This document shows, in pieces, positions 3,857 through 57,219 of a stretch of 64,000 nucleotides of DNA (position 1 is the first letter of the stretch; the number at the start of each line of letters is the position of its first letter). The translations under genes were made by a program, and so were the position numbers. The stretch is from Prevotellaceae bacterium UBA1720 (GTDB lineage: Bacteria; Bacteroidota; Bacteroidia; Bacteroidales; Bacteroidaceae). A model generated the notes under the pieces. It did not search any database. It had not been told where the DNA came from and saw only the letters and a program-made list of their open reading frames with translations. Where the stretch lies: contig DCIS01000122.1 of assembly GCA_002317475.1 (NCBI GenBank), forward strand, positions 7,881-71,880. Reading direction: 5' to 3'.

Positions 3857-4639
3857 CTAAACTGCGTTTATAGCGGGAAAAATGCGCCGTGCATTGCACG
3901 TTGTGACATCTTCCACCTCTGCCAGAGAAACTTGATAGATTTCAGATAACTTTTGCGCCACAAGTCTTACGTACGAACTCTCATTACGCTTCCCTCTGTT
4001 GGGTACAGGAGCAAGGTATGGACTATCCGTCTCCAAGACAATTCGTTCAAGAGGGACATCCCGAAGTGCATCTGGCAGTATGGCTTTTTTGTAAGTCAAC
4101 ACGCCTCCTATCCCGAGCACAAATCCGTCGAAAGAGAGCAACTCGCGCGCTTCTTCTGCATTGCCACCAAAACAGTGAAACACACCTGTCAAACCATCCT
4201 TTCGGTGTGCATTCATGATATCCACCAGTTCTTTCTGTGCAGAGCGGGAGTGTATCATCAACGGTAGACCAAGGTCTCTTGCCCATTCTATCTGCATCTC
4301 AAAAGCGTCAAGCTGCTGCGTTTTGCGCGAATCATCCCAGTAGAAGTCCAGTCCGACCTCACCTACAGCAACATAAGGGTGATTAGGCACCAATAGCAAC
4401 CGATGCATACGTTCGAGGACTTGGAGATAGTCATCCTCGAGATCAGTGGGATGTAGCCCCATCATGGGGTAACAGTAACCAGGGTGTGCCTGGCAAAGTG
4501 CCATCATCAGGGGGATAGTCTCCTCGTTGACATTGGGCAGCAGTATCTTTTCCACCCCAGCCTCACGGGCACGCAATACCACTTCATCACGATCTTCAGC
4601 AAATTCGGGGCCGTATATATGACTATGAGTGTCTATCAT
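3857..4639 (-). CDS. TatD family metal-dependent hydrolase
   Basis: MIDTHSHIY... is the HxH motif at the N-terminus. The 260-aa length and conserved ETDSPYLAP motif match TatD/YchF-type DNases. Confidence 0.9.
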   Translation of the reverse strand: MIDTHSHIYGPEFAEDRDEVVLRAREAGVEKILLPNVNEETIPLMMALCQAHPGYCYPMMGLHPTDLEDDYLQVLERMHRLLLVPNHPYVAVGEVGLDFYWDDSRKTQQLDAFEMQIEWARDLGLPLMIHSRSAQKELVDIMNAHRKDGLTGVFHCFGGNAEEARELLSFDGFVLGIGGVLTYKKAILPDALRDVPLERIVLETDSPYLAPVPNRGKRNESSYVRLVAQKLSEIYQVSLAEVEDVTTCNARRIFPAINAV

Positions 4640-11458: not shown

Positions 11459-11504
11459 CAAAAAGAAAGGCAATTCCCAAAATCTCACACCTTAAAAACA
11501 CACG

Positions 11505-11594
11505 AATTGTTAGTTAGTTAGGTTAGATGAGCAAGGCACACCTACGGATTTGCTGAAAGAGAGGGGATAAACTAACCTAACTAACTAACAAATT
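11505..11594. repeat. TTAG-motif inverted pair, unit 1 (about 90-bp hairpin)
   Basis: AATTGTTAGTTAGTTAGGTTAG (11505-11526) and CTAACCTAACTAACTAACAAATT (11572-11594) are reverse complements apart from one missing T. The loop is 45 nt. Confidence 0.9.
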
Positions 11595-11688
11595 ATAATT
11601 TATTTTCTCTATCTATATACTCCCCTGTTCGTCACCCCCATGCATCATCTCTATCTACTTCCCCACACATACACAGAAAAAAAATAGC

Positions 11689-11780
11689 AATTTGTTAGTT
11701 AGTTAGGTTAGTTGTTAGACACAGGGTGGATGCACAAGAGGCACGCGCTCTGAGGACCTAACCTAACTAACTAACAAATT
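11689..11780. repeat. TTAG-motif inverted pair, unit 2 (about 92-bp hairpin)
   Basis: AATTTGTTAGTTAGTTAGGTTAG (11689-11711) and its perfect reverse complement (11758-11780). The loop is about 46 nt and unrelated to the unit 1 loop. Confidence 0.9.
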
Positions 11781-11792
11781 ACACTATACATA

Positions 11793-12900: not shown

Positions 12901-13021
12901 CTACGTACAGCCTACGTATAGCCTACGTACAGCCTACGTACAGCCTACGTAAACGTACGGTGTTTGTACGGTGATTGTACGGTGATTGTACGGTGTTTGT
13001 ACGTATATAGTACGATGTCTC
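12901..13021. repeat. 11-bp phased TACG-core tandem array A
   Basis: CTACGTACAGC x4-5, then TACGGTG(A/T)TTG x4, then TACGTATATAG/TACGATGTCTC. TAC starts fall at 12902, 913, 924, 935, 946, 956, 967, 978, 989, 13000, 13011. Confidence 0.9.
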
Positions 13022-26973: not shown

Positions 26974-27027
26974 TAGGTCTTTCCTAGGTTGTTCTAGGGA
27001 TTCCTAGGAGTTTCTAGGTTATCCTAG
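26974..27027. repeat. 10-bp phased CTAG array D
   Basis: (A/C)TAG cores at 26974, 984, 994, 27004, 014, 024. The array runs up to the carB stop codon (27030). Confidence 0.85.
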
Positions 27028-30541: not shown

Positions 30542-30623
30542 TGAATAACGGGGTCAGACCCCATTGTTCATTTTCGTGTGCATGAATAACGGGGTCAGAC
30601 CCCATTGTTCATTTTCGCGTGCA
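30542..30623. repeat. 29-bp palindromic element, copies 3 and 4, as two tandem 41-bp units
   Basis: TGAATAACGGGGTCAGACCCCATTGTTCATTTTCG(T/C)GTGCA occurs at 30542-30582 and 30583-30623. Confidence 0.9.
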
Positions 30624-32639: not shown

Positions 32640-34094
32640 ATGACAATTCAAGAACTTGATCCCCAGATTATCTGGAAGAATTTCTATCTGTTGACACAAG
32701 TACCTCGTCCAAGTGGTCACCTGGAGAAGGTACAGCAGTTCCTGCTCGACTGGGCCAAGGAGCGTGGCATTGAGGCATGGAAGGACAATGCTGAGAACAT
32801 CGTGATGCGCAAGCCCGCCACTCCCGGCTATGAGAATCGTCAGACTGCCGTACTGCAGGCTCACATGGATATGGTGCCTCAGAAGGTGGACGAGAGCAAT
32901 CATAACTTCGAGACCGACCCTATCGAGACCTACATTGATGGTGATTGGGTAAAGGCAAAGGGTACAACCTTAGGTTCGGATGACGGTATGGGTGTAGCTG
33001 CCATGATGGCTGTCTTTGAGAGCAATGACCTCGAGCACGGACCACTGGAGGCCCTCATCACGGCTGACGAGGAGACCTGCATGTATGGTGTGAACAACCT
33101 CTCGGCTGATACCTTGAAGGGTGACATCCTGCTGAACATTGACAATGAGACCATGGGCGAGTTCGTCATCGGTAGTGCTGGTGGTGTGAACATCACTGCT
33201 TCGCTGGGTTACAAGGAGGTGGAGCCCGAGCAGGGTGACGTAGCTATGAAGATTACCTTGAAGGACCTCAAGGGTGGACACTCTGGTCTGGAGATCTGCG
33301 AGGGTCGTGCCAATGCCAATAAGTTGATGGCTCGCGTCGTTCGTCAGGCTATCCAGGATGATGATGCACGTCTCTGTTCATGGCATGGTGGTAACATGCG
33401 CAATGCCATTCCCCGTACCGCTGAGGTAGTGCTGACCATCCCCGCTGAGAACCAGGACGACTTGAAGGAGTTGGTAGACTATTGCCGTGGTGTGTTCCTG
33501 GCTGAGTTCCGTGGTGTTGAGGAGGAGTTGACCCTCACCGTAGAGCCTACAGAGATGCCTAAGGGTCAGATGCCCGAGGAGATTCAGGACAACGTAGTGA
33601 ATGCCATCACGGCTTGTCATGACGGTGTGCTGCGCTATATTCCCAGCATTCCCGAGGTGGTTGAGACCAGCTCTAACCTGGGTATCATCAACATCGCTGA
33701 TGGCGAGGCTACCGTGCTGATCCTGGCACGCTCGAGCAACGAGACCATGATGGAGTACATCCAGGAGATGCAGGAGGCTTGCTTCTCGATGGCTGGCATG
33801 AAGGTGGAGTATGGTGGTCAGTATGGTGCTTGGCAGCCCAACTTCGACAGTCCCATCACCGCTACCATGGTACAGGTGCACAAGGATCTCTTTGGCGAGG
33901 ATGCCAAGGTACAGGTTTGCCACGCAGGCCTCGAGTGCTCTATCATCGGTGGTGTCTATCCCAAGATGGACCTCGTAAGCTTCGGTCCTACCCTTCGTTC
34001 GCCCCACACGCCCAACGAGCGTTGCAATATCCCCTCAGTGGCTAAGTTCTGGGTGTTCCTGAAGGAGTTGCTGAAGAATATACCGGTGAAGTAG
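32640..34094 (+). CDS. pepD: aminoacyl-histidine dipeptidase (M20 family)
   Basis: 484 aa: PRPSGHLEKVQQFLLDWAKERG, HMDMV, TTLGSDDGMGVA, DEETCMYG. Confidence 0.93.
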   Translation: MTIQELDPQIIWKNFYLLTQVPRPSGHLEKVQQFLLDWAKERGIEAWKDNAENIVMRKPATPGYENRQTAVLQAHMDMVPQKVDESNHNFETDPIETYIDGDWVKAKGTTLGSDDGMGVAAMMAVFESNDLEHGPLEALITADEETCMYGVNNLSADTLKGDILLNIDNETMGEFVIGSAGGVNITASLGYKEVEPEQGDVAMKITLKDLKGGHSGLEICEGRANANKLMARVVRQAIQDDDARLCSWHGGNMRNAIPRTAEVVLTIPAENQDDLKELVDYCRGVFLAEFRGVEEELTLTVEPTEMPKGQMPEEIQDNVVNAITACHDGVLRYIPSIPEVVETSSNLGIINIADGEATVLILARSSNETMMEYIQEMQEACFSMAGMKVEYGGQYGAWQPNFDSPITATMVQVHKDLFGEDAKVQVCHAGLECSIIGGVYPKMDLVSFGPTLRSPHTPNERCNIPSVAKFWVFLKELLKNIPVK

Positions 34095-34109
34095 AAGACC
34101 CTCCCCCCG

Positions 34110-34136
34110 CCCTCCCTACCACTTCGTTAGGGAGGG
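34110..34136 (+). terminator. hairpin after pepD
   Basis: CCCTCCCTA-ccacttcgt-TAGGGAGGG forms a perfect 9-bp stem. No clear T-run follows. Confidence 0.4.
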
Positions 34137-34154
34137 AGTAGATACAATTTGACT

Positions 34155-34299
34155 GTAGGAAATTCTAGGTGGTCCTAGGAAATTCTAGGGAATCCTAGAG
34201 AATCCTAGGTAATCCTAGGTGGTCCTAGGTGGTCCTAGGTGGTCCTAGGTAGTCCTAGGTAATCCTAGGGAAATCCTAGAGAATCCTATATAATCCTAA
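34155..34299. repeat. 10-bp phased CTAG array E (about 15 units)
   Basis: CTAG-type cores at 34155, 165, 175 ... 265, then 276, 286, 296. The core units are GGTCCTAGGT and AATCCTAGGT. Confidence 0.95.
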
Positions 34300-34330: not shown

Positions 34331-34350
34331 ATTATTATAGTAATTATAGT

Positions 34351-34374
34351 AATTTGTTAGTTAGTTAGGTTAGG
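34351..34374. repeat. TTAG-motif copy (F orientation)
   Basis: AATTTGTTAGTTAGTTAGGTTAGG. Confidence 0.9.
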
Positions 34375-34451
34375 TTGTTAGTATGAAATGCACTGAGGGC
34401 TGAGCCTCTTGCGTTGTTAGTATGCAATGCACTGAGGGCTGAGCCTCTTGC
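34374..34451. repeat. 2 x 39-bp tandem direct repeat
   Basis: GTTGTTAGTATG(A/C)AATGCACTGAGGGCTGAGCCTCTTGC occurs twice. A third partial unit, GTTGTTAC, overlaps the stop of the 34456 gene. Confidence 0.9.
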
Positions 34452-34455
34452 GTTG

Positions 34456-36120
34456 TTACTTTGCCCCCATGACTTCGGTGGTTTTCTTCAGATATTTCTC
34501 TGTGAGTTTGATCACCTGGTTACGCGTCTTCTCGGCTTCTTTTGAGAGGTAGCCATACTTTCCAATCAAGGCAAGGTGGTGGTTGTTTTGCTTGTTGAAG
34601 AACTCCAGCAAAGACTTGTAGATCTCTTTTTCCAGTTTGGGTTGTGTGGTCAGACCGTATGTCTTTGCGAGCTTGATGAGTTCCTTGATCTGTTTGTCCA
34701 GTTGCGTGTTCTGCTGGTATATCTGCTTGAAGTAGATGTCCATGCTGCTCCATTTCCTCACTTTGCTGGAGCCATTGAGGATGATGGTCTTCTCGTTTTG
34801 TGTGCCAATCATTTTATACAAGTCCTCAGTGAGGTCTATGTTCTGCCCGACTGCCATGCTCTTCGCCTCTATGGTTGCTTTCTGCTCAGGGGTGAGCTTT
34901 TCGAATGGGTCACTTGATGCACGAGATGCCTCTGGGTCATAAACTATTGCCACATCTCCTTCATCATTTATTGCAACAGTATCAGGAATGTAGACATCGT
35001 CATCAATGTAGACACCGTCATCAATGTAGACACCGTCGGGAACTAAGACTGTATCGGCAATCCAAACGTCCTCATCATACTCATCATACTCGTCATACTC
35101 CTCATCATCCTCATAGCCTCCAGTCAGCTCCACGTCGTCATTCTCATGGCCAAGGAAGAAGCTCCGGTGCGATTTGCGACGTAGGCGTGCCTGGTAGTCG
35201 TTGTCGCCTTCGTAGTAGCCGTTGTGGGTGGTGATGCGGTAGGTCTCACCGGGTATCATGTCGATGTTGGTCCATAGTTTGCAGAGCGAACCATCAGGCA
35301 TCACGGTACGGATACGTCCTGCCATAGGTTTGTCGATGTCTACCGTTACACCAAACTGATGGTTCCTTGACACGGGCATGGGGAGCACGTCGTTGTGCGT
35401 CTTCATGTACTCTTTCAGCACAGAGTATTGGTCGGTCATCATCGACAGTTCGGTCATACGGTCGTAGGTATCAGCCACATAGAAGATGTAGAGCGAGTCG
35501 TTGAGGTCGTAGCCCACACGTCCGTCCAGACGGAAGGTGCTGCTCGAGCTTTCCATGCTCCTCTCGTAGAGGTCAGGGCGGAGCGAGGTGATCTTGTAGA
35601 TATCGCCCTCTACCGTGCCTGTTTCGTCTACTCGTTCCCACACGATGGCGTAGGCATCACGCAGTTGTGGATTATCGGGGTTCTTGCAGCACATGAGCCA
35701 CATCGTCTGCTTGGAATTGGTGCGCAGGTTCAGACGGTTGACTCGCTGAGAATCCTTGGTGGGAACGGTGAGTTGGAACAGGTCCTCCTTGCCTGGAGTG
35801 ATGAGCAGGAACTGGTAGCTCTTGGGCTCGTCCTGTAGAAAACTCTTGCCCACGGCCAGCAGTTCAGGGCTGTTTATACCACACTTGAAGTGGTCGATCT
35901 GCTGACGCGACTCTATGATTCCCGTGTTGGGGTTGCGGTTCACCTCGAAGTGGCGGTTCATGCTGTTTCCGTATTCGAGGTCAATAGCGTTCAGGGCATC
36001 CATCACGTGGATGGGGTATGGACTGTTGTCGGTACTTGCTTTGCGCGTCTTGGGTGTCTGTGCGCTGACTGTGGTTGCGAGGCTGCATGCGATGAGCAGC
36101 AAAAGGAATATTTTTTTCAT
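34456..36120 (-). CDS. secreted protein of unknown function with an acidic D/E/Y-rich repeat region
   Basis: Signal peptide MKKIFLLLLIACSLATTVSAQ, an EDDEEYDEYDEYDED stretch, and three in-frame 18-bp tandem repeats (34989-35042) encoding D(D/G)VYID. It is the last gene of the ECF sigma operon. Confidence 0.7.
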   Translation of the reverse strand: MKKIFLLLLIACSLATTVSAQTPKTRKASTDNSPYPIHVMDALNAIDLEYGNSMNRHFEVNRNPNTGIIESRQQIDHFKCGINSPELLAVGKSFLQDEPKSYQFLLITPGKEDLFQLTVPTKDSQRVNRLNLRTNSKQTMWLMCCKNPDNPQLRDAYAIVWERVDETGTVEGDIYKITSLRPDLYERSMESSSSTFRLDGRVGYDLNDSLYIFYVADTYDRMTELSMMTDQYSVLKEYMKTHNDVLPMPVSRNHQFGVTVDIDKPMAGRIRTVMPDGSLCKLWTNIDMIPGETYRITTHNGYYEGDNDYQARLRRKSHRSFFLGHENDDVELTGGYEDDEEYDEYDEYDEDVWIADTVLVPDGVYIDDGVYIDDDVYIPDTVAINDEGDVAIVYDPEASRASSDPFEKLTPEQKATIEAKSMAVGQNIDLTEDLYKMIGTQNEKTIILNGSSKVRKWSSMDIYFKQIYQQNTQLDKQIKELIKLAKTYGLTTQPKLEKEIYKSLLEFFNKQNNHHLALIGKYGYLSKEAEKTRNQVIKLTEKYLKKTTEVMGAK

Positions 36121-36123
36121 GTC

Positions 36124-36855
36124 TTATTTCTGTGCAGTTTGTTCGATGTTGTATTTTGAGATTTCCAGCTCCAGCTCCATCCACTTCAGGTAGGCCTCGT
36201 TGGCTTGTTTCTTCATGAGTGCCAGTTCCTCCTTGGTGTAGCGGAGGTTCTCGGGACGTGTGATGGGGATATCGCTCTCGCTGAGCAGCAGAGGTTCACG
36301 TTTGGTGAGGACCTCGGGCTGAGGGTCTTGGGATGCAAGGGTTTGATCTGCCTGTAGGGTTGGGGCTTCTACGATCTCCTCTGCCTGGGTGGGAGTAGCC
36401 GCGGTGTTTGTTGCTTCCTCGGCCACGTGCGCCTTCTGCTTTTGGGGTGCAGGGGTGGATGCCTGGGCTATGAGGGTGGGTTGCGCGATGCGACTTGTCG
36501 CATCGAACAGAGGGGTATCTGTGCCTTCTTCCTCCGCTTTCGTGCCTTCTTCCTCCACCTTCGTGCTGTCTGGTTTTACCTCTGCGATTTGCTTCCCTGC
36601 TGGGGTTTCAATGACATTGTCCTTGGGTGGCGTGAGGAAGATGACCAGCACGGCAGCTACGCAGGCTGCGGCTACCCAGGGCCATATCGTCGCGATGCGC
36701 TTACGAGCAGGTTGGTTCACCTCCTTTTCCACGCGCTGCATGAGTCGGGCATTGAGGGTAGGTGGCATCTGAGGACACGCCATCTCCTCCTCGCGGATAG
36801 CCTCCCTAAGGTTGGCATCCTGGTTGAGTAAGTCTTTCAGTTTGTCCTCGTTCAT
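36124..36855 (-). CDS. putative anti-sigma factor (single-pass membrane protein)
   Basis: Its ATGA start overlaps the sigma gene stop. It has a short cytoplasmic N-terminus, one TM (IWPWVAAACVAAVLVIFL) and a low-complexity periplasmic part. The call rests on position and architecture only. Confidence 0.5.
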   Translation of the reverse strand: MNEDKLKDLLNQDANLREAIREEEMACPQMPPTLNARLMQRVEKEVNQPARKRIATIWPWVAAACVAAVLVIFLTPPKDNVIETPAGKQIAEVKPDSTKVEEEGTKAEEEGTDTPLFDATSRIAQPTLIAQASTPAPQKQKAHVAEEATNTAATPTQAEEIVEAPTLQADQTLASQDPQPEVLTKREPLLLSESDIPITRPENLRYTKEELALMKKQANEAYLKWMELELEISKYNIEQTAQK

Positions 36856-37403
36856 GTTCGTAGGGTGTTAATGATTTTACAGAGTTTCTTGCGTGTTCGG
36901 CTGAGCCGTGATGCGATGGTGGTGGGGATGGACTGGGTGACGAAGGCTATCTCCTTGAGGCTCATCTCGTCGTAGTAGAACATCGTGATGATGGCTTGCT
37001 CGTCAGGTGGCAGGTGGTGTATGGCTGCGCGGATGAGTTGTACCACCTCCTGGTTGGGCCGCCCCAGTGTCTCCTCGACCTCTGCCTCCGTGATGGCCTC
37101 GTAGCTGTTGTCGCCATCGTCCAGGTAGATCATCCTCTGCCGCTTTCGCCTGAGGTGTGTGATGCACTCGTTGTAGGCTATGCGCAGGAGCCAGGTCTTG
37201 AAGGTGGAGCGTTCTGCGTCATACGTATTGATGTGCTGGAACACCTTGATGAAGACGTCCTGGTACACCTCCTCGGCATCCTCCACGGGGGAAATCATGC
37301 GTGCCACCTGAGCCCAGACCATACGGCCATATCGCTCCAGCGCCTGCTGTTGTGCCTGTGGACTTTGTTTCCTCAGTCCGGCTATGATTTCCGTTTCTTC
37401 CAT
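36852..37403 (-). CDS. RNA polymerase ECF-type sigma-70 factor
   Basis: 183 aa. Region 2 is DAEEVYQDVFIKVF...FKTWLLRIAYNECI and region 4 is SLKEIAFVTQSIPTTIASRLSRTRKKL. Confidence 0.9.
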   Translation of the reverse strand: MEETEIIAGLRKQSPQAQQQALERYGRMVWAQVARMISPVEDAEEVYQDVFIKVFQHINTYDAERSTFKTWLLRIAYNECITHLRRKRQRMIYLDDGDNSYEAITEAEVEETLGRPNQEVVQLIRAAIHHLPPDEQAIITMFYYDEMSLKEIAFVTQSIPTTIASRLSRTRKKLCKIINTLRT

Positions 37404-37438
37404 CCGTTGTTTTTGAGGTCTTCTATCTGTATATACGA

Positions 37439-37446
37439 CAAAGCTA
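37439..37446 (-). promoter_or_regulatory. -7 box TAGCTTTG
   Basis: 36 nt upstream of the ECF sigma ATG at 37403. Confidence 0.45.
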
Positions 37447-37491
37447 CGCCAAACATTGCACCGTTGGCGAAAAAAACAGAAAAAATATAGT

Positions 37492-37514
37492 AATTTGTTA
37501 GTTAGTTAGGTTAG
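37492..37514. repeat. TTAG-motif copy (F orientation)
   Basis: AATTTGTTAGTTAGTTAGGTTAG lies 45 nt beyond the sigma-gene -7 box. Confidence 0.9.
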
Positions 37515-37539
37515 TTGTGGGTGGGTGTGAAATTTTTAT

Positions 37540-37691
37540 TTAACATGAATGGCCGCTCAGCGTGTCGAAGACCGATGCTTCGCTCGAAAGGGCAGAAGAA
37601 CAACGAAAACAACATTCTTTGGCTCACATGCTACGCAGTCAAGTGGTAACCGAGCGGTTGATATTGTTGCTATTGTTGCCATTCATGTTAA
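37540..37691. other. long-range inverted repeat / candidate structured RNA
   Basis: TTAACATGAATGGC (37540-37553) pairs perfectly with GCCATTCATGTTAA (37678-37691). The pairing is extended by CGCTC (37554-58) with GAGCG (37652-56), plus an internal CGAAG/CTTCG hairpin. Confidence 0.35.
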
Positions 37692-37711
37692 TATCATCAA
37701 GTTCTCACCAT

Positions 37712-38347
37712 CTATTCCTTATAGTTGTTTTGGTGGTCCTGCAGTTCCTTGTCGGTCATCTTTACATAGTGTGAGAGGAGGTAGACGGGGGCAGAGCTGC
37801 CGTTGGCGTTGGCACGAGTGGCAATGTTCTGGGTAAGCCACATGGAGTTCTCCTGGAAGAAAATAACCTGAATGATGCGGGATGCCTCGGGAGATGCTGT
37901 GACAAGCGCATTCGTGGGCACCTGTGGGTAGACGTCGATGACATCATAGTCGGAATGGTATGCCCAGTTCAGGTGATGCTTGACGTTACCGGGCAAGGCA
38001 CCGGAGAAGGTGAACAGGGTGAGGGTGGAGTCTGTGTCAAAGTAGTAGTCGTAGGGACTGGCACCTATCATATCCTGGTAATAGTCCACGGTCTTGGGTG
38101 TGCCATCTGCCTTGATCTCGTAGCCCTCTTTGTACTTCCATCCCTTGCCCACCAGGGCTTTCTTCACCGCCTGGGCATCACGAAACACACCTCGGGGTAT
38201 GTATAGCATTCTGCCATCCTCGGCGAGGGGGAACTTGGATTCTTTCCAGTTTGAATCGTTAAAGGCGTCATCCTCGGGAAACTCCTCACAGCTGGTGGCC
38301 AGCACACTCGTAAGCGCCATTAGCGCCATAAACAGATATTTTTTCAT
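37712..38347 (-). CDS. lipoprotein, unknown function
   Basis: MKKYLFMALMALTSVLATSC lipobox; 211 aa. Confidence 0.7.
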   Translation of the reverse strand: MKKYLFMALMALTSVLATSCEEFPEDDAFNDSNWKESKFPLAEDGRMLYIPRGVFRDAQAVKKALVGKGWKYKEGYEIKADGTPKTVDYYQDMIGASPYDYYFDTDSTLTLFTFSGALPGNVKHHLNWAYHSDYDVIDVYPQVPTNALVTASPEASRIIQVIFFQENSMWLTQNIATRANANGSSAPVYLLSHYVKMTDKELQDHQNNYKE

Positions 38348-38445
38348 CTTGTTTTAGTTTTCGGTAGTTGTGGTTTTAGTATGAGTTTAATAAAACCTTC
38401 ACACGAAAGCCACAAGAACCAGTTTTTGATTCTTTTTATTCCTTT

Positions 38446-38943
38446 TCATTCCTTGCCCTCTTGCTCGAAGTAGAAGGTGTAGAAGGTGTCACCGGCCTGG
38501 AGGCCTACGGTGAGGTAGCGAGCATCAGAGAGGTTAGGCTGGAAGGTGACATCGAGGATGCCTTCCTCCTGGACCTTGGCGGTGCACAAGTCGCACTGGA
38601 GGGTGTACATGTCCATTTTGACAGAATCGGGGGATTCCTCCCAGGTATTGTCTCCCCACAATGTGCCTCCGTGGGTTACCTCTACGATCTTGCTATTCTC
38701 GTCCAAATAGCGTATGTGGGTCAGCCAGAAACCCTGGTAGTTCTTGCATCGGAAGGTAAGCGTTCCACCCTGCTGAGGCACCACGTAGGTGTGCTGCCCA
38801 TTGTGCTTGCTCGTCTGGTAATTGGTGTCGGCCCACTTCATAGGATCCCAGTCCCCGTCTTCTGCGCAGGAGTCACAACCCGTCAGCCACGTCATCGTCA
38901 TGGCCAAAAGGAGGAAAAATAGCATTCGTTTCATGTGATTCAT
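38446..38943 (-). CDS. lipoprotein, unknown function
   Basis: Start trimmed to the ATG at 38943 (MNHMKRMLFFLLLAMTMTWLTGC lipobox), 27 nt downstream of a -7 box. Confidence 0.7.
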   Translation of the reverse strand: MNHMKRMLFFLLLAMTMTWLTGCDSCAEDGDWDPMKWADTNYQTSKHNGQHTYVVPQQGGTLTFRCKNYQGFWLTHIRYLDENSKIVEVTHGGTLWGDNTWEESPDSVKMDMYTLQCDLCTAKVQEEGILDVTFQPNLSDARYLTVGLQAGDTFYTFYFEQEGKE

Positions 38944-38969
38944 CGTGTATTGTTCATGTATTAACCGCA

Positions 38970-38977
38970 CAAAGGTA
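38970..38977 (-). promoter_or_regulatory. -7 box TACCTTTG
   Basis: 27 nt upstream of the ATG at 38943. Confidence 0.45.
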
Positions 38978-39022
38978 GGGATTATTGCAAACACGGGCAA
39001 GAAAAATGTAATAAAATATCTT

Positions 39023-39045
39023 AATTTGTTAGTTAGTTAGGTTAG
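39023..39045. repeat. TTAG-motif copy (F orientation), left arm of an inverted pair
   Basis: AATTTGTTAGTTAGTTAGGTTAG pairs with 39184-39206. Confidence 0.9.
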
Positions 39046-39060
39046 TTTAACAGCTTAGAG

Positions 39061-39160
39061 ACAACGTACATTGCACGTACAGACACCGTATAACCTACGT
39101 ATGGACACCGTAAGTGTACGTAGGCTGTACGTAGGCTGTACGTAGGCTGTACGTATAATC
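39061..39160. repeat. 11-bp phased TACG-core array B
   Basis: Contains GTACGTAGGCT x3 (TACG at 39117, 128, 139, 150). This is the reverse complement of the CCTACGTACAG unit of array A. GACACCGTA is the reverse complement of the TACGGTGTC unit in arrays A and C. Confidence 0.9.
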
Positions 39161-39181
39161 GCTGGCAGAAAATATACCCCG

Positions 39182-39208
39182 ACCTAACCTAACTAACTAA
39201 CAAATTAC
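39182..39208. repeat. TTAG-motif copy (R orientation)
   Basis: ACCTAACCTAACTAACTAACAAATTAC is identical over 27 nt to 43403-43429 and to the copy ending at 11782. Confidence 0.9.
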
Positions 39209-39289
39209 TATTTTTTATGTAGAATATATGGGAAGACTAGAATGTCCAATAAACACCTTATATATAAGAAAGAAAAAATAATAATTTAT

Positions 39290-39312
39290 AATTTGTTAGT
39301 TGTTAGTGTTAG
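39290..39312. repeat. degenerate TTAG-motif copy (F orientation)
   Basis: AATTTGTTAGTTGTTAGTGTTAG lies 10 nt upstream of the -7 box at 39323. Confidence 0.7.
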
Positions 39313-39322
39313 TTTTTATGCG

Positions 39323-39330
39323 TACCTTTG
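39323..39330 (+). promoter_or_regulatory. -7 box TACCTTTG
   Basis: 56 nt upstream of the ATG at 39386. Confidence 0.45.
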
Positions 39331-39385
39331 CGAATGAAGTAATGCTGAGCCTACACTGCGGGGCTTGGGAAAAAGGGAAAAATAC

Positions 39386-40120
39386 ATGAAACTATCTGAA
39401 AATGAGAGAGAAACATTCGTGAACATCTACTGCATGGAGTGGGTGAACATGAATCCACGCAATCTAACACGCCTGAAGATTGTGAACGACATGACACCAC
39501 TTTTTGAGGATTTCAGCACGCTAAACCCCGCTTTCGTCGACTTTTTCTACAATTATGAGGACCGCCGACTGGTTTTTGCAGCCCTTCATTTCATGGCTGA
39601 CAATGAGCTGGAGCGCCTCTTGGGCATTAACCCCATCATGCACGATTACCTTGATAACCTGCAGTGTACCAACGAGTTACTCAACGACACCGTACACTTT
39701 TACTCCTACGACGAAGGGAAGCAAGGGGATGCTGAGGAGCATGCCGACCACATGATGTCAACCCTGCTGAGCGTACAAAACCACCTGGCTTTGGGTGCTG
39801 AGATGGGCCTGGAAGGCAGAAGAATGGGTGTGTATGATGCCATGGTGGGAGTTTTCTCTATCACCATTGACGTACGCATCGTGCGTGCCGCCAAGGAACT
39901 GAACACCTGGCTGCTTGACATCACCTACCCCTACCAGGACAACAAGAGGATGCTGGAAGAGGTGTCGACCCGCATCGAGGAACTGAGCGAGAAGTATGGC
40001 TTCGAGTTCAACGAACGACTGACCCCACCCCTCATCGTGAATGAAGTGATGAACTGGGACGAAGGGACGCTGCGAGGGCTGTACATAGAACTGAAGATGC
40101 ACTTCGAGCACAAGCTGTAA
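39386..40120 (+). CDS. hypothetical protein (244 aa)
   Basis: ATG at 39386 (the ORF-track start at 39365 is a TTG) with a -7 box 56 nt upstream. I recognise no family. Confidence 0.6.
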   Translation: MKLSENERETFVNIYCMEWVNMNPRNLTRLKIVNDMTPLFEDFSTLNPAFVDFFYNYEDRRLVFAALHFMADNELERLLGINPIMHDYLDNLQCTNELLNDTVHFYSYDEGKQGDAEEHADHMMSTLLSVQNHLALGAEMGLEGRRMGVYDAMVGVFSITIDVRIVRAAKELNTWLLDITYPYQDNKRMLEEVSTRIEELSEKYGFEFNERLTPPLIVNEVMNWDEGTLRGLYIELKMHFEHKL

Positions 40121-40182
40121 CCCCCCAACATCGTTCATCGCTTAATAACTCCACCCCCCCTCTCTATATATAAATAAGGTAT

Positions 40183-40671
40183 ATGCGTAGACCCAAGACC
40201 ATAAAGTTGGAAACCGAAGACTGTCCCCAGAAGAGAACGGCCGGGGCACCCCGTGCCGAGCTGTTCTGCAACGAGGAGGCCAGGGAGCAGTTTCATGCCT
40301 TTGTGGGACGTGTGATGAAGGAGGTCTACCAGGAGAAGTACCACGGATATGTGGTTGGCCAGCAGGTAGCCTATCGTGTGGAGGGGGCTGCCATGATGTT
40401 CCTGGTACTGACGGAAAAGGGGTTGATCAACAAGGACCGTACGGTACACTCCTTCTGCAAAGAGCTGACCAAATGCGTCACCTCGCTGGGCTATCCACCC
40501 ACCGTGATACCTAACAGATGCCATGTGGGGCCGAAAATCAACGAATATACCCATGCCCAGGAAAAGCGTATCATCATCACCGGGGAACTGAGCGAGAAGA
40601 CCAGCCCCTCTCATCAGGAATGCTACACTTTCCTACACCGTTTCTACGAATTGCTGTGCGAAAAACTATGA
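40183..40671 (+). CDS. hypothetical protein (162 aa)
   Basis: ATG at 40183 and a basic N-terminus (MRRPKTIKLE). I recognise no family. Confidence 0.55.
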   Translation: MRRPKTIKLETEDCPQKRTAGAPRAELFCNEEAREQFHAFVGRVMKEVYQEKYHGYVVGQQVAYRVEGAAMMFLVLTEKGLINKDRTVHSFCKELTKCVTSLGYPPTVIPNRCHVGPKINEYTHAQEKRIIITGELSEKTSPSHQECYTFLHRFYELLCEKL

Positions 40672-40674
40672 TTC

Positions 40675-40772
40675 AGGTACATTAATACCCTGTTCCAAGG
40701 TACAATAATCCGTTTTCAGGTACAATAATTCCCCCCCGAGGTACACTAATTATTCTCTCAGGTACAACAATT
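40675..40772 (+). promoter_or_regulatory. five iteron-like direct repeats AGGTACAnTAAT
   Basis: AGGTAC starts fall at 40675, 40698, 40718, 40739, 40760 (spacing 23/20/21/21 bp). The set ends about 30 bp upstream of the -7 box of the primase-helicase gene. Confidence 0.7.
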
Positions 40773-40803
40773 CCCATTATTTGGAAGGCCTTATTTTAGG
40801 TCG

Positions 40804-40811
40804 TAACTTTG
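40804..40811 (+). promoter_or_regulatory. -7 box TAACTTTG
   Basis: 61 nt upstream of the ATG at 40872, just downstream of the five AGGTACA repeats. Confidence 0.5.
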
Positions 40812-40871
40812 CATTGCAGTTCGGGCAACAACGCCTTGAACAGCAAAGTAATTTCCTAAAACATTATCACT

Positions 40872-43247
40872 ATGGGAAAAACTATCTTCGCTGCACTCTT
40901 GCAGCACAACGCAGCCGGAAAGGCTGAACCAATGACCCGCGAGAACTTCTACGCTCAGGTGAGAAGTACAAAGGTCGAGAGAGTAATCAACGCCATTGAG
41001 AGCGAGCAGGAAGGGGCTGACCTGAGACCCCTGAAGAACCTCTTGCCCGCTGTTCAGTACATGGCACAGTATCCAACAGACGGTCATCGCCCCAAGAAGG
41101 ATGACTCGAAGCCTACAGGCCTCTGCATGCACGACTTCGACCACCTGGAGATGGACGTAACAGCATTCTTCGAGGGAAAGGTTCGTCCCTTGGCAGACAC
41201 CCTGCACCTGGCACTGGCTCACATCACACCCAGTGGCAAAGGCCTTCGACTGGTCACACAGATGATGGCAGGAGAGAGCATCGAGGAGTGTCAGCACCGT
41301 GTAGCCAACCTTCTGGGCATCAGTGACTTCAAGGACGAGCACGTGAAGGACATCTGCCACCTCTCCTACCTGGTATGCGAGAGCTACATCCTCTACATCA
41401 ACGAACCTCTGCTCTTTGACATCGAGGCTGAGGAGGTCATCGAGGCTGAGAAGGATGAGGACATCGAGGACGCCGTGATCGTGGAGGACAGCGAGGAGGA
41501 TGAGGTGCGTACAAAACACCCCATCGAAGAGGCTGAGGAGGCTGAGGAGTGTCACGACCTGGTGCCCGTAGAGGTGCCCGAGGAGCCCATGTACGAAGGT
41601 GTCTTCCCCCTGCGCACCATCGTGAAGAAGCTGGAGGAGCGCATTGCCACACAAGGCCTTGTGCAGGTGGGTGAGCGCAACGTGAAGCTCTATACCATGA
41701 CCATACACATGCGTGCCCTCGTGCAGGACAACTTCCAGCAGCTCTACAACCTCCTCGCACCCCTCTTCCTGGAGCGTGGCATCAAGGACGATGAGATTCG
41801 CCAGACCATCGGTTCGGCACTGGGACAGCGTCAGAAGCATCCCGGACGTATCACCGCCCTGATTCAGGGCATCCTTTCGGAGATGCAGGTGATGAAGGGC
41901 TCGGGCGAGACGGATATGCAGTTGCCTCCCATGCCAGCCCTGCCTCCCTTCCTGGAGATGCTCACCTCGCTCTTCCCCGAACGTATGAAGGCTCCTGTGG
42001 TACTGGCCTCACTGCCTATGCTGGGCACGCTGGCAACGGGTGTACGCCTCAGAAGCAATGATGAGGAGAAGCCTGCCTCGCTCACCTTCATCGTGCATGT
42101 AGCAGCCCCAGCAGCCAGCGGTAAGGGATACGTCAGCGTGTTGAAGCGTCGTCTGCTAGGATGCCTTGCCGAGCAGGACAATCGTGAACTGGAGGCCATG
42201 GAGAAGGAGCGTAACGCCAACCGTCAGAAGGGTGCCAACGAGCGTAAGAAGATGGGCAAGCACAAGCTGCGCCTCGTGGCTGCCAACGCCACTATGGCTT
42301 CACTCTACCAGCAGATTGCCGATAGTGAGGGTGAGCATATCATACTCTGTACAGACGAGATACGCGACATCCTGAAGACCTCTGCCTCGGCCTACACCAA
42401 CTTCCAGGAAATCCTGCTCCACTCCTTCCACAACGAGGAGGTAAGCAAGAGCACCGTAGGCGACGCTACCTCGACCATGCGCAAGGAGGTCTTCCTGAAC
42501 TCCGTGACCTGCGGCACACCAGGTGTCACCATGCAGTTCTTCAAGAACGCCGAGGATGGACTCGTCACGCGTACCCTCTTCATCACCCTGCCTTCATCAC
42601 TGGGCGAGAAGTGTCCCAAGTTCAACAAGCCTAACGACAAGCAGCAGGCATGGATAGACGAGGTGACCGAGAGTCTGCAGCAAGAGGTAGGATACTGCGA
42701 CCTGCCCGTACTGGAGGCTGCCATCGATGACTTCACGGAGAAGGCTCGTCTGCGCTACCTGATGGACGATGATGACGTCATGGCCACCTTCTCACACCGT
42801 AGTGCCGACATAGGCCTGCGTGCCGGAGTACTCTTCTGGCTGCTCGAAGGCAGACCTCAGGACCTCTGCAAGAAGAAGGCACCCAAGCACCTGAGCAAGG
42901 CTGCACAGCGTGTCGTCGACCTCGCCCTCTGGGTAGCCAAGTATTGCCAGATGATGCAGTACACCCTCTTCGGACAGCAAGCCAGCGAGCAGATCTCGGC
43001 AGCCAGCATCAAGAGCTACAAGACGCAGCAGCAGAGCATCTACGACGAACTGCCCAATGAGTTCACCACCTCGCAGATCAATGATGCACGCTTCAAGATG
43101 GGACTCAAGCCTACCTCCAACCCCAGCGTGACAGCAGGTCGTTGGGCAGCACAGAACTGGATTGCCAAGCAAGCCAATGGACGCACCTGGGTGAAGCTCT
43201 TCCCCACCTCTCAGCACGCCATTCAGGCCACGATGGAGGTAGCGTAG
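40872..43247 (+). CDS. primase-helicase-like protein (VirE/BT4734-like N-terminal domain plus DUF3987-like P-loop domain)
   Basis: The N-terminus has NLLPAVQY..GLCMHDFDHLE..ITPSGKGLRLV, which resembles the Bacteroides VirE_N pattern (LPAFTPSG / IDIDK / SPSGKGLK). The middle has VHVAAPAASGKGYV, which is Walker A-like. Family names are from memory. Confidence 0.65.
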   Translation: MGKTIFAALLQHNAAGKAEPMTRENFYAQVRSTKVERVINAIESEQEGADLRPLKNLLPAVQYMAQYPTDGHRPKKDDSKPTGLCMHDFDHLEMDVTAFFEGKVRPLADTLHLALAHITPSGKGLRLVTQMMAGESIEECQHRVANLLGISDFKDEHVKDICHLSYLVCESYILYINEPLLFDIEAEEVIEAEKDEDIEDAVIVEDSEEDEVRTKHPIEEAEEAEECHDLVPVEVPEEPMYEGVFPLRTIVKKLEERIATQGLVQVGERNVKLYTMTIHMRALVQDNFQQLYNLLAPLFLERGIKDDEIRQTIGSALGQRQKHPGRITALIQGILSEMQVMKGSGETDMQLPPMPALPPFLEMLTSLFPERMKAPVVLASLPMLGTLATGVRLRSNDEEKPASLTFIVHVAAPAASGKGYVSVLKRRLLGCLAEQDNRELEAMEKERNANRQKGANERKKMGKHKLRLVAANATMASLYQQIADSEGEHIILCTDEIRDILKTSASAYTNFQEILLHSFHNEEVSKSTVGDATSTMRKEVFLNSVTCGTPGVTMQFFKNAEDGLVTRTLFITLPSSLGEKCPKFNKPNDKQQAWIDEVTESLQQEVGYCDLPVLEAAIDDFTEKARLRYLMDDDDVMATFSHRSADIGLRAGVLFWLLEGRPQDLCKKKAPKHLSKAAQRVVDLALWVAKYCQMMQYTLFGQQASEQISAASIKSYKTQQQSIYDELPNEFTTSQINDARFKMGLKPTSNPSVTAGRWAAQNWIAKQANGRTWVKLFPTSQHAIQATMEVA

Positions 43248-43288
43248 AAGGAAAGAAAGGGCGAAAAGCACGAAGGGATGAAAGAATG

Positions 43289-43320
43289 AAAGGGTACTCA
43301 CACGGGTACCCTTTTGTTTT
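43289..43320 (+). terminator. rho-independent terminator after the primase-helicase gene
   Basis: AAAGGGTAC-tcacacgg-GTACCCTTT followed by TGTTTT. Confidence 0.65.
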
Positions 43321-43328
43321 AGGAAGAC

Positions 43329-43401
43329 CTAGAAAGCCTAGGAAAGCCTAGGAAAGCCTAGGAAGTCCTAGATAATCCTAGATAATCCTAGATAATCCTA
43401 A
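43329..43401. repeat. 10-bp phased CTAG array F
   Basis: GAAAGCCTAG x3, then GATAATCCTA x3. CTAG cores fall at 43329, 338, 348, 358, 368, 378, 388, 398. The array runs directly into the TTAG motif. Confidence 0.9.
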
Positions 43402-43402
43402 T

Positions 43403-43429
43403 ACCTAACCTAACTAACTAACAAATTAC
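43403..43429. repeat. TTAG-motif copy (R orientation)
   Basis: ACCTAACCTAACTAACTAACAAATTAC lies 7 nt from the gntR-family stop. Confidence 0.9.
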
Positions 43430-43435
43430 GGTTTT

Positions 43436-48600: not shown

Positions 48601-48608
48601 GGAAAAGC

Positions 48609-48723
48609 CTAGGAATACCTAGGAAAGACCTAGGAAGGTCTAGGAAGGTCTAGGAATACCTAGGAACACCTAGAAAATCCTAGCAAATCCTAGTAAACCC
48701 TAGTAAACCCTAGAGAATCCTAG
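48609..48723. repeat. 10-bp phased CTAG array G (12 units)
   Basis: CTAG cores at 48609, 619, 630, 640 ... 720. The array begins 9 nt after the GH51 stop and precedes the terminator. Confidence 0.95.
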
Positions 48724-48736
48724 ACACAAACAAAAA

Positions 48737-55704: not shown

Positions 55705-57057
55705 ATGAACTGGGAGCAACTACTTTCCACACAACGACTGGGTATGGAAAACCAGCCAACAAGGGCTGATGACCGCACTGAATTTCAGCGTGATTATGAC
55801 CGTCTGATCTTCTCCGCACCATTCCGTCGTCTTCAGAACAAAACACAGGTATTTCCTCTTCCTGGAAGCATCTTTGTGCACAACCGACTGACACATTCGC
55901 TGGAGGTAAGTAGTGTGGGCCGTTCGTTGGGCAACGATGTTAGCAGAATTCTCTTGCAGAAACACCCCTGGCTCTACAATACCCACCTCACAGAACTGGG
56001 CAGCATCGTGTCAGCAGCCTGTCTGGCTCATGACATGGGTAATCCTCCCTTTGGGCATAGTGGAGAACGGGCTATTGGTACATACTTCTCGGAAGGTGCA
56101 GGTCAGTGGCTCAAGGACTACGTTTGCGAAGAGACTGGCGATTCCCTGACACCCGAGCAATGGCAAGACTTGATACACTTTGAGGGTAATGCCAATGCTT
56201 TCCGTCTGCTTACCCACCATTTTAATGGCCGGAGAAAGGGCGGTTTCGTAATGACCTACTCTACCCTGGCCAGCATTGTGAAGTACCCTTTCACCAGCGA
56301 TTTAGCAGGTTCTCATCGAAAGTTTGGATTTTTCCGTTCAGAGATAGAAGACTACAAGCTAATCGCAGAGACCCTGGGTCTGAAGAAACTTGAGGCACCC
56401 GAAGGCAGCATCCGTTATGCGCGTCATCCCTTGGTTTATCTGGTAGAAGCAGCTGATGACATCTGTTACGAAATCATGGATATTGAAGATGCCCACAAAC
56501 TAAAAATCCTCACAGAAGAAGAGACCAAAGATTTGCTTCTGGGATTCTTTGAAGGGGAGCAACTGAATCACATCAAAGCACGACTGGAAAGCGTAGAGGA
56601 CATCAACGAACAGGTGGTTTACCTGCGCAGCGTGGCCATCAACTGTCTGGAAGGCGAATGTGTGAATGTCTTCGTAGAGAACGAAGAGGCCATCCTCAAT
56701 GGCACTTTCGAAGGTTCGCTCATCGACCACATTTCCGAACATCCTCGCAAGGCCTACAAAACCTGCGAGGCAACATCGTATGACAGAATCTATCACTCTA
56801 AGAATGTAATTGACATTGAGATTGCCGGTTTCAAAGTCATCACAGAGTTGACAGACCTGATGATGCATGCCGTGACACATAGTGACAGAGCCTACTCCCA
56901 GCTACTTATCAATCGCGTCTCCACACAATACGAAATCCTTGCCCCAACTCTGTATGAGCGTATAATGGCCGTACTGGATTACATCTCGGGCATGACTGAC
57001 GTCTTCGCCCTTGACCTCTATCGCAAGATCAATGGCATGACTCTACCAAACGTATAA
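55705..57057 (+). CDS. dgt: dGTPase-like triphosphohydrolase (HD domain)
   Basis: DRTEFQRDYDRLIFSAPFRRLQNKTQVFP, RLTHSLEV, LAHDMGNPPFGH. Confidence 0.9.
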   Translation: MNWEQLLSTQRLGMENQPTRADDRTEFQRDYDRLIFSAPFRRLQNKTQVFPLPGSIFVHNRLTHSLEVSSVGRSLGNDVSRILLQKHPWLYNTHLTELGSIVSAACLAHDMGNPPFGHSGERAIGTYFSEGAGQWLKDYVCEETGDSLTPEQWQDLIHFEGNANAFRLLTHHFNGRRKGGFVMTYSTLASIVKYPFTSDLAGSHRKFGFFRSEIEDYKLIAETLGLKKLEAPEGSIRYARHPLVYLVEAADDICYEIMDIEDAHKLKILTEEETKDLLLGFFEGEQLNHIKARLESVEDINEQVVYLRSVAINCLEGECVNVFVENEEAILNGTFEGSLIDHISEHPRKAYKTCEATSYDRIYHSKNVIDIEIAGFKVITELTDLMMHAVTHSDRAYSQLLINRVSTQYEILAPTLYERIMAVLDYISGMTDVFALDLYRKINGMTLPNV

Positions 57058-57152
57058 TGACCGTATAAACAACGTACAAACAACGTACAAACAACGTATA
57101 AACAACGTATGTATACGTACACTATACGAAGGCTGTACGGTGTCTGTACGGT
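57050..57152. repeat. 11-bp phased ACGT-core array C
   Basis: AACAACGTACA/AACAACGTATA units, then GTACGGTGTCT. ACG starts fall at 57050, 061, 072, 083, 094, 105, 115, 126, 137, 148. The first unit overlaps the dgt stop. Confidence 0.9.
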
Positions 57153-57219
57153 GTTGAATTCATCGCCGCACACAAGAAAACAGAATGCTTTATTGCAAAA
57201 ACCGAGCGTTTTCCCCCTA

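Follow-up and report, generated by a model that had tools for sequence, protein, structure and literature searches.

Archaeo-eukaryotic primase (AEP) helicases have been described from mobile elements (Iyer 2005; Kazlauskas 2018, PMC5862659), and the elements covered in the latter study are bounded by attachment (att) repeats arising from tyrosine or serine integrases and are found mostly in tRNA genes. The locus considered here, a three-gene module of Prevotellaceae bacterium UBA1720, resembles these elements in that its largest gene, C, encodes a BT4734-like AEP together with a DUF3987 P-loop ATPase, and differs from them in having neither an integrase nor a tRNA target, and in carrying two orphan partner proteins, the products of genes A and B. 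The integrated region spans positions 39021–43429 (4.4 kb), with a core at 39277–43434, of the 64,000-nt stretch of DNA that was analysed; this stretch is hereafter the window, to which all positions refer unless a comparison locus (L-number) is named.

Several other described systems invite comparison with this module. In the pri-rep-ori modules of Staphylococcus aureus pathogenicity islands and phage-inducible chromosomal islands (SaPI/PICI), and in iteron plasmids, the initiator gene is found beside phased direct iterons. The primase-helicase gene C likewise adjoins phased iterons, an analogy suggesting that C may bind them to fire replication. Unlike those systems, the module is devoid of int, xis, master repressor, packaging, capsid-redirecting, partition and mobilisation genes, its iterons lie 5' of the initiator gene, and no episomal copy was seen in the sets searched. 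NBU1 and similar mobilisable transposons of Bacteroides encode the primase-like protein PrmN1, and NBU elements are further equipped with a tyrosine integrase, with mob/oriT and with a tRNA att site. The module shares with NBU1 a chromosomal location in a member of the Bacteroidales and a primase-family gene, and differs in lacking all three of these features. Finally, repetitive extragenic palindromic (REP) sequences and their associated tyrosine transposases (RAYTs), for which four hallmarks are listed in Nunvar et al. 2010 (PMC2817692; see also Bertels and Rainey 2011, PMC3116915), provide a precedent for a unit flanked by inverted, co-evolving repeats that are dispersed both as singlets and as hairpin doublets, as they are here; unlike that precedent, the module has no HUH transposase of the IS200/IS605 type, its genes are a primase-helicase and two orphans, and its repeat is not palindromic. 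Whereas the protein family and the REP/RAYT precedent are established in the literature, literature searches turned up no description of the three-gene unit or of its motif.

We read this module as a small accessory replicon of the iteron type, lacking an integrase and using a motif of its own as border, and consider this reading to have a probability of roughly one half. It is carried by the enzyme identity of C, the iterons, the conservation of the three-gene unit, its patchy distribution, a bracket of repeats that varies along with the genes, and the purifying selection acting upon them.

The 791-aa product of C (40872–43247, + strand) matches PF08800 (BT4734-like_N) over residues 55–135 (5.2e-6, 27.1 bits versus a cut-off of 22.4) and PF13148 (DUF3987) over residues 436–605 (1.6e-11, 44.4 bits versus a cut-off of 27). 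Both matches pass the curated Pfam cut-offs and uphold the assignment made in an initial annotation of this DNA from its sequence, which had recognised a VirE/BT4734 primase-like domain and a DUF3987-like P-loop. The PADLOC PrimPol model (3.6e-7) covers the same residues as the PF08800 match, and the P-loop AAPAASGKGYV is encoded at 42103–42135. An AlphaFold2 (AF2) model of C is confident (predicted local distance difference test, pLDDT, 82) and has an α/β N-terminal domain. Predicted domains are an AEP primase (residues 1–187), an acidic disordered linker (188–236), a helical domain, a DUF3987 AAA+ helicase-like ATPase (approximately 355–660) and a C-terminal helical or winged-helix region. 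In Foldseek comparisons the ATPase resembles MCM subunits, SsoMCM, RuvB and ComM (E = 2e-6 to 2e-4), and the whole chain resembles phage primase-polymerase and DUF3987 proteins with E-values down to 1e-15; sequence and profile searches of the PDB with A and C were uninformative. The catalytic motifs listed for AEPs are I (hhhDhD), II (sxH) and III (hD/E) (PMC5862659), and the corresponding residues in C, namely D88 and D90 in LCMHDFDH, H117 in LAHITPSG, and D160, are all invariant among the eight closest members. D88 and D90 are invariant also across a 20-sequence alignment, as are the Walker A residues S416 and K418 (AAPAASGKG), the Walker B residue E496 and the candidate arginine finger R567. 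Judging from these matches and the modelled fold, C joins an AEP primase and a helicase-like ATPase of the DUF3987/AAA+ kind in a single chain, and is of the type known from mobile elements (PMC5862659) and, as family comparisons and the phage matches bear out, the type initially proposed; it also looks catalytically intact.

One mark of an iteron-type replicon is a set of at least three phased direct repeats adjoining the initiator gene, and five such copies lie beside C. These direct iterons (GGTACAnnAAT, 40676–40771, + strand) begin at 40676, 40699, 40719, 40740 and 40761, are thus 20–23 bp apart and 101–196 bp 5' of C, and constitute a putative origin and/or operator for this gene. The 11-mer occurs nowhere else in the window, lending substance to the five iteron-like repeats noted initially. 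TAnnTTTG is the −7 consensus of Bacteroides promoters, and it was searched for in place of a sigma-70 promoter scan, which is unsuitable for Bacteroidota. Such Bacteroidetes-type −7 boxes are found at 39323–39330 (TACCTTTG, + strand, 63 bp 5' of the A start codon), serving A and B, and at 40804–40811 (TAACTTTG, + strand, 68 bp 5' of the C start codon), in agreement with the two promoters originally predicted.

The partners of C are more enigmatic. Gene A (39386–40120, + strand) encodes an all-helical orphan of 244 aa, and gene B (40183–40671, + strand), which always comes after A, an orphan of 162 aa; as the initial annotation had anticipated, neither has a family match in Pfam, NCBIfam, PHROGs or PADLOC. 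Protein A contains the invariant motif NHxxIGxxLGLx6GVYDA, and its invariant residues are N47, H133, G137, G141, Y150 and D151; in B a single Arg is invariant. Homologues of A amount to some 11 clusters among 5.8 billion, and B has three credible representative relatives among 1.84 billion, a distant match to an MBG-repeat protein having been judged spurious. Under a conservative reading of the locus, too, A and B make up a new pair of gene families, very rare and linked in function to a replication initiator.

Both ends of the module carry an exact 27-mer, ACCTAACCTAACTAACTAACAAATTAC, at 39182–39208 (+) and 43403–43429 (+), each copy followed by NN and TTTTTTAT (continuing as TATTTTTTAT and GGTTTTTTAT, respectively), precisely as first noticed. 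The left copy, whose orientation we call the C-direction, is preceded by an outer copy at 39021–39047 (− strand) that reads TTAATTTGTTAGTTAGTTAGGTTAGTT on the + strand, the G-direction. These two form an inverted doublet around a 134-bp spacer (39048–39181) that includes an 11-bp tandem array (TGTACGTAGGC, 3.7 repeats, 39115–39155). L010, L014 and L101 show the same G-spacer-C arrangement 5' of their modules; the L010 spacer, 314 bp long, has no sequence relationship to that of the window. A degenerate G-direction copy (TAATTTGTTAG TTGTTAG TGTTAG, 39283–39318, + strand), with equivalents in L010, L011, L014 and L101, is located directly 5' of the gene A promoter. Beyond C, a G+C-rich hairpin followed by a T-run (43289–43314) forms its terminator, which may work in both directions and serve the gntR operon as well, and is followed by 10-bp tandem arrays (TAGGAAAGCC and TCCTAGATAA, 43320–43400; the same type occurs at 26974, 34156 and 48608) and by the right direct copy, 156 bp past the C stop and 6 bp from the gntR stop.

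This organisation is not peculiar to one genome. Homologues of C were found on contigs at 79, 51, 43, 37, 36, 31, 29 and 27% identity, and a further locus, L115, was reached via a homologue of A. The unit of A, B, C and iterons is intact in at least nine lineages of herbivore-gut Prevotellaceae, A and B accompanying C in the window and in L010, L011, L014, L099/L098, L100, L101, L102 and L115. Gene order varies between A-B-C, C-A-B, and B-A divergent from C. Iterons with a ACACTAAT-like core are located 5' of C in eight of nine loci and also in L115, in a more diverged form in L011 and L099, and this core persists even at 27–44% identity of C. The modules are flanked by housekeeping genes that differ by lineage, for example the M20 peptidase and peptidyl-prolyl isomerase (PPIase)-dcw genes, glyoxalase/FolD-Ffh, PduO/LuxR, CysS/YhcG and PheT/SprA. 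No integrase, relaxase/mobilisation or phage gene was found beside family modules in the flanks scanned or annotated, where several proteins have no recognisable family.

Each lineage possesses its own version of the bracketing motif, 25–29 nt long and of one design, TTAxTG plus three stop-containing units of 4–8 nt, realised in a sequence of its own (for example GTAATTTGTTAGTTAGTTAGG, CTTAACGTTATAATGTTATATTG, CTTAATGTCTAAATGTCTAATG, CTTAATGTAAGTTGTAAGTTG, CTTAATGTCAGTATGTCAGTCAG, CTTATTGTTAGATGTTAGATG and AATGTGATTTGTGATTTGTGA). In the G-direction the motif reads GTAATTTGTTAGTTAGTTAGGTTAGGT in the window and L010, CCTTAACGTTATAATGTTATATTGTTATA in L014, CCTTAATGTCTAAATGTCTAATGTCTAAG in L101, CTTAATGTAAGTTGTAAGTTGTAAG in L102, GCTTAATGTCAGTATGTCAGTCAGTCAGC in L099 and L098, CTTATTGTTAGATGTTAGATGTTAGATG in L103, CTTATTGTTAATTGTTAGATGTTAGG in L100 and AATGTGATTTGTGATTTGTGAT in L115, and is of a TCAG type in L114. 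A G-direction copy lies 5' of the module, and in nine of ten family loci a C-direction copy lies within 160 bp past the C stop, often with an extra outer copy that creates an inverted doublet around a variable spacer containing tandem repeats. Of 114 loci, only those of this organism and L010, the latter likewise bearing the module, have the TTAG version. It has no copy at the loci of 80 related species (~1.4 Mb), and exact scans of GTDB genomes, JGI metagenome contigs and IMG/VR returned no match. Nor do the motifs of L102 and L103 occur in control loci of 21 kb taken from their own genomes (L024, L026), and by our count motif density at modules is about ten times that elsewhere in the loci examined. 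Extra dispersed copies number one each in L014 and L099, dispersal beyond the module being documented in the window genome. Because the motif co-varies with the module by lineage and is missing from the loci of 80 relatives and from two control loci, it looks like part of the architecture of the element itself, co-evolving with it, and not like a pre-existing host target; the initial annotation had proposed it as an attachment or target site. Two further features of the family loci may be recorded here, a 3.6-kb insertion between divergent A-B and C in L001 (2759–6429; open reading frames (ORFs) of 164, 173 and 851 aa), missing in the sister locus L002, and a long tandem array of ~41-bp units (4209–4514) in the 1.8-kb intergenic region 5' of the module in L115.

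The distribution of the module is patchy. Its subfamily comprises six loci among 185,579 species genomes, all from uncultured Bacteroidaceae/Prevotellaceae of horse or other herbivore guts. In none of 80 relatives having an M20 peptidase 75–95% identical to that of the window are A, B or C found within 10 kb of the M20 gene, so that the three genes are not a conserved feature of this locus, and in the closest of these, L016 and L017, M20 is joined directly to another block. One relative, L010, shares the neighbourhood in the order M20, module, PPIase-dcw cluster, and its homology to the window module extends from 39277, the start of the degenerate promoter-proximal copy, to 43434, five bases past the right copy. 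Between these two, host proteins are 85–99% identical (with the exception of FtsL at 70%), compared to 70, 67 and 79–80% for A, B and C, respectively. Module genes exhibit dN of 0.12–0.21, dS of 0.6–1.2 and dN/dS of 0.17–0.35, versus dN of 0.03–0.10 in four of five host genes on the dcw side (0.21 for ftsL), where dS ranges from 1.05 to saturation and dN/dS, where computable, is 0.02–0.05. The module genes are therefore under purifying selection, their proteins evolving faster than those of the host, and their lower dS possibly reflects a common ancestor more recent than that of the genomes. As to the original proposal of a small integrated replicon, satellite or remnant, comparison with the 80 relatives supports an accessory module, whereas a decaying remnant is at odds with these dN/dS values and with a unit intact in at least nine lineages.

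The surroundings of the module are less uniform. The last 87 codons of M20 differ from those of L010 with a dS of 0.15, and the stretch 33830–34188 (the M20 3' end and the downstream array) is 94.7% identical at the DNA level to L010 1–360, compared to ~76% for module and dcw genes, and to 83–86% for L016–L018 over the same stretch. It looks like a recent recombination tract beside the module. These contrasts with L010 in dN/dS, in dS and at the M20 end indicate a functional and fast-evolving module within a mosaic region. L010 also lacks the block 34376–39020, bounded in the window by a direct pair of G-direction copies (34349 and 39021). With its borders (34349–39047, 4.65 kb) this block encodes a 554-aa protein, an anti-sigma factor, an extracytoplasmic function (ECF) sigma factor and proteins of 211 and 165 aa, at least the latter being lipoprotein-like; it contains a third motif copy (37490), and its G+C content at third codon positions (GC3), 0.64–0.74, resembles that of the module. 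Synteny with L010 breaks on the right-hand side at the 43403 copy, and breakpoints versus L016 and L018 at 18.7, 26.9, 34.2 and 37.5 kb are all motif sites.

This leads to the behaviour of the motif across the window. In addition to the flanking pair, exact 27-mers occur at 11756 (+) and 34349 (−). Eleven window sites have three mismatches or fewer, with none expected, and a looser core identifies 13, on both strands and all intergenic (11502−, 11570+, 11687−, 11756+, 18760+, 26862−, 34349−, 37490−, 39021−, 39182+, 43403+, 49534+ and 55656+). Same-orientation copies bound seven of the 12 consecutive intervals, including one that holds methylmalonyl-CoA mutase, and with 13 copies so arranged the flanking direct repeat carries no weight by itself, nor can the two 27-mers alone be taken for att sites, in line with the caveat of the initial annotation that a multicopy motif is no proof. 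Apart from the four copies associated with the module, a further nine or ten lie between 11.5 and 55.7 kb; the 19 kb adjoining on the left and the 12 kb on the right have none, 76 kb of the genome having been inspected. The copies are situated 5' of promoters (37490, 39021), in a 5' leader (18760) and between convergent gene pairs (26862, 34349, 43403). The unit itself is not palindromic, being a run of stop-containing units of 4–8 nt, and hairpins arise only from inverted doublets. Two such doublets, at 11502–11596 and 11687–11782, have 43-bp spacers unrelated to each other and fold as 20–23-bp hairpins flanked by T-runs (z = −5.1 and −8.8). They could be bidirectional terminators, REPIN-like units (REP doublets forming hairpins) or unoccupied landing sites; in a comparison with L016 intended to reveal a clean insertion, their intergenic region was strongly diverged.

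Motif copies between 26862 and 55677 also display a polarity, the four left of 39.1 kb all facing in the G-direction and the four on the right in the C-direction, every one of them directed away from the doublet at the left edge of the module. The extra copies of L014 (10212) and L099 (12279) obey the same outward polarity; counting the window, L014 and L099 together, the seven extra copies closest to a module face away from it without exception. A chromosomal replication origin or terminus was ruled out as the cause, GC skew showing no switch across the window. Since numbers are small, and both repeats and breakpoints are expected in intergenic regions, polarity and the coincidence of motifs with breakpoints are only suggestive.

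Other repeats are plentiful in this DNA. Tandem arrays of 10–11 bp fall into two classes, a CCTAGGAAAN type and a GTACGTAGGCT/GTACGGTG type, located at 34156–34298, 43320–43400, 48608–48724 and 26974–27027, as well as 12901–13018, 39115–39155 and 57049–57154. These arrays are found repeatedly both between genes and at the 3' ends of genes, with a period of roughly one helical turn, and contain the palindromic hexamers CCTAGG and TACGTA; other assemblies of the organism break at them. A 41-bp tandem duplication (two copies, 30542–30623) carries the hairpin-like GGGGTCAGACCCC, and a 39-bp duplication (2.2 copies, 34374–34458) begins at the 34349 motif copy and overlaps the gene for the 554-aa protein at its 3' end.

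Direct signs of mobility were sought around the module and in its relatives. As initially annotated, there is no integrase, excisionase, mobilisation or structural gene in the module or among flanking genes with a family match. The neighbours include the ECF sigma/anti-sigma pair, a GntR/ABC operon and several others without a recognisable family, and the module itself has no PHROG match and no Pfam domain of the mobilisation (relaxase/oriT), packaging or capsid kind. Its vicinity is free of Rfam families and of tRNA genes, the nearest tRNA being 35 kb away. Protein searches of PLSDB and INPHARED returned only weak matches to the DUF3987 domain, on Bacteroides and Parabacteroides plasmids and virome scaffolds, the weakly matching 'Bacteriophage sp.' records of 4–5.5 kb being unverified linear scaffolds, and scans with a family profile in IMG/VR and JGI metagenomes yielded nothing. 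Evidence for movement comes from a more distant group, P0025, whose proteins are 24% identical to C with the same domain architecture, one identical protein being present in at least three chromosomal contexts. Islands of this type (L110–L113) combine identical 771-aa primase-helicase genes with an Amidase_3 gene and swapped restriction-modification cargo (AlwI-type versus FokI-type), no integrase being seen in them, and at their right end a motif of the same design, GCGTCCAACGTCCAACGTCCAATAAA, is found ~35 nt before a junction abutting a host terminator. These sequences show that integrase-less, if distant, relatives of the module have moved recently. Their small proteins include no homologues of A or B, and in L112 a palindromic insertion of 160 bp is found near the right end of the island.

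A number of observations weigh against an accessory replicon bordered by its own motif. No circular, plasmid or viral copy of the subfamily is present in PLSDB, INPHARED, IMG/VR or JGI metagenome contigs, the sets in which free forms were looked for on the initial suggestion. Contig ends at 39127/39129 and 43395 were considered as evidence of a circle and rejected, since these breaks fall in 10–11-bp tandem arrays that break other contigs as well; a 4,267-bp contig (L005) was dismissed as a circle on the same grounds, its ends lying in tandem arrays. The anticipated strains with an empty site did not materialise within the species, all four samples holding the organism being 100% identical here (apparent length differences among them are gene-calling artefacts), and a GTDB search for such a site with the p355/GntR-side neighbour retrieved no relatives. 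The repeat is not exclusive to the element in this genome, given the seven intervals bounded by direct copies, and neither A nor B yielded the signature of a recombinase, nuclease or transposase, protein A having resisted modelling altogether (AF2 pLDDT 46, unusable for a fold search). In loci of the C-A-B type (L102, L115) the motif pair, direct or inverted, surrounds C and its iterons alone; because A and B are left outside, a simple model of excision between repeats fails for some members. Window and L010 agree in the side of M20 on which the module lies, and vertical inheritance with local rearrangement therefore explains this pair. Composition offers little help. Gene C does have the GC-rich codon usage ascribed to it (57.4% GC and GC3 0.735, compared to 50.0 ± 2.6% and 0.577 ± 0.072 for other genes), and the 349-aa antisense ORF initially cited is present at 40791–41840, but the contrast with its neighbours does not hold, since genes at 34456–38943 and the M20 gene also have a GC3 of 0.64–0.74. 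It is therefore a weak signal, and was rejected as proof of foreign origin.

How the repeats and the genes are related can also be understood in other ways. By analogy with REP/RAYT systems, A, B and C would be a single-copy resident driver that creates, maintains or moves dispersed short repeats, the flanking 27-mers being its cognate repeats. All four hallmarks given by Nunvar et al. 2010 have a counterpart here, and the analogy would account for genes flanked by inverted repeats (the G-copy at 39283 and the C-copy at 43403) with which they co-vary, for a repeat present only alongside the module, for neighbouring genes that, ftsL aside, evolve more slowly than those of the module, and for 13 copies in 44 kb, two hairpin doublets among them, with the seven nearest extra copies all directed outward. 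We nonetheless consider it unlikely, as no HUH or other transposase was detected in A or B, neither of which has a conserved HUH motif as expected of an IS200/IS605-like enzyme, the motif is not palindromic, and the doublet spacers are unrelated, unlike those of REPIN copies. Dispersal, moreover, is documented for this genome only, of which the inspected portion is 76 kb, L014 and L099 having one extra copy each and L024 and L026 none in 21 kb. A similarly doubtful proposition is that the TTAG motif is a species-specific intergenic element of the host, such as an insulator, terminator or protein-binding site, by which an old and vertically inherited module happens to be flanked. The motif does occur in all kinds of intergenic context and bounds most intervals directly, structured intergenic repeats of other kinds abound in the genome, the module has kept to one side of M20 in L010 as in the window, and its GC3 is matched by that of neighbouring genes. 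However, coincidence poorly explains a G/C bracket recurring in at least nine lineages, each time in a different sequence, the lack of TTAG copies in ~1.4 Mb from 80 species and of L102 and L103 motifs in control loci, or the roughly tenfold higher motif density at modules in the loci examined.

The possibility that the module is what remains of a larger mobilisable transposon, integrative and conjugative element, prophage or satellite, its integrase and transfer or packaging genes having been lost, appears quite improbable. In its favour, BT4734-like/DUF3987 proteins typically come from mobile elements that as a rule possess an integrase (PMC5862659), and weak DUF3987 matches were found on plasmids of Bacteroides and Parabacteroides and on virome scaffolds. 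Yet the minimal unit recurs with intact ORFs, promoters and terminator in at least nine divergent lineages, never with integrase fragments, its dN/dS is well below 1, and the catalytic residues of C are invariant.

If the module is indeed an accessory replicon with its own border, a working mechanism can be sketched. C would bind the conserved iterons and fire replication of the element, in the manner of the pri-rep-ori modules known from iteron plasmids and phage satellites, and the fast-changing 27-nt motif would be the site at which an element-encoded function joins the element to, or releases it from, other copies. The likeliest candidates for this joining activity are the fast-evolving A and B proteins, possibly acting together with C, and such an activity would explain why no classical integrase is found. 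Recombination between the 39182 and 43403 copies would generate a circle of 4,221 bp made up of the three genes, the iterons and a single motif copy; what remained in the chromosome would be a G-spacer-C inverted doublet resembling the two unoccupied ones at 11502–11596 and 11687–11782. Extra motif copies may then be footprints or landing pads of the joining activity, now located at the junctions of rearranged gene blocks. More tentatively still, module and motif may represent an undescribed 'driver plus dispersed repeat' system of Bacteroidota, in which the primase-helicase and two orphan proteins recognise a lineage-specific, stop-codon-rich motif, copy or recombine DNA at this site, and seed outward-polarised solo copies and hairpin doublets that serve as junctions for the insertion, inversion and exchange of gene blocks.

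The usual view of such primase-helicase genes is that they travel as passengers on elements equipped with an integrase. In the present family a minimal unit of three genes and iterons persists alone, under purifying selection and changing its location between lineages, and its private end motif mutates along with it. Should this motif prove to be the substrate of an element-encoded joining reaction, it would point to a mechanism of mobility or repeat spreading outside the known recombinase families. The 4.2-kb fragment is a testable candidate for a replicon or vector in Prevotella-type hosts, and the same mechanism, if true, would also explain the species-specific intergenic repeats and the rearrangement hot spots of uncultured gut Prevotellaceae.

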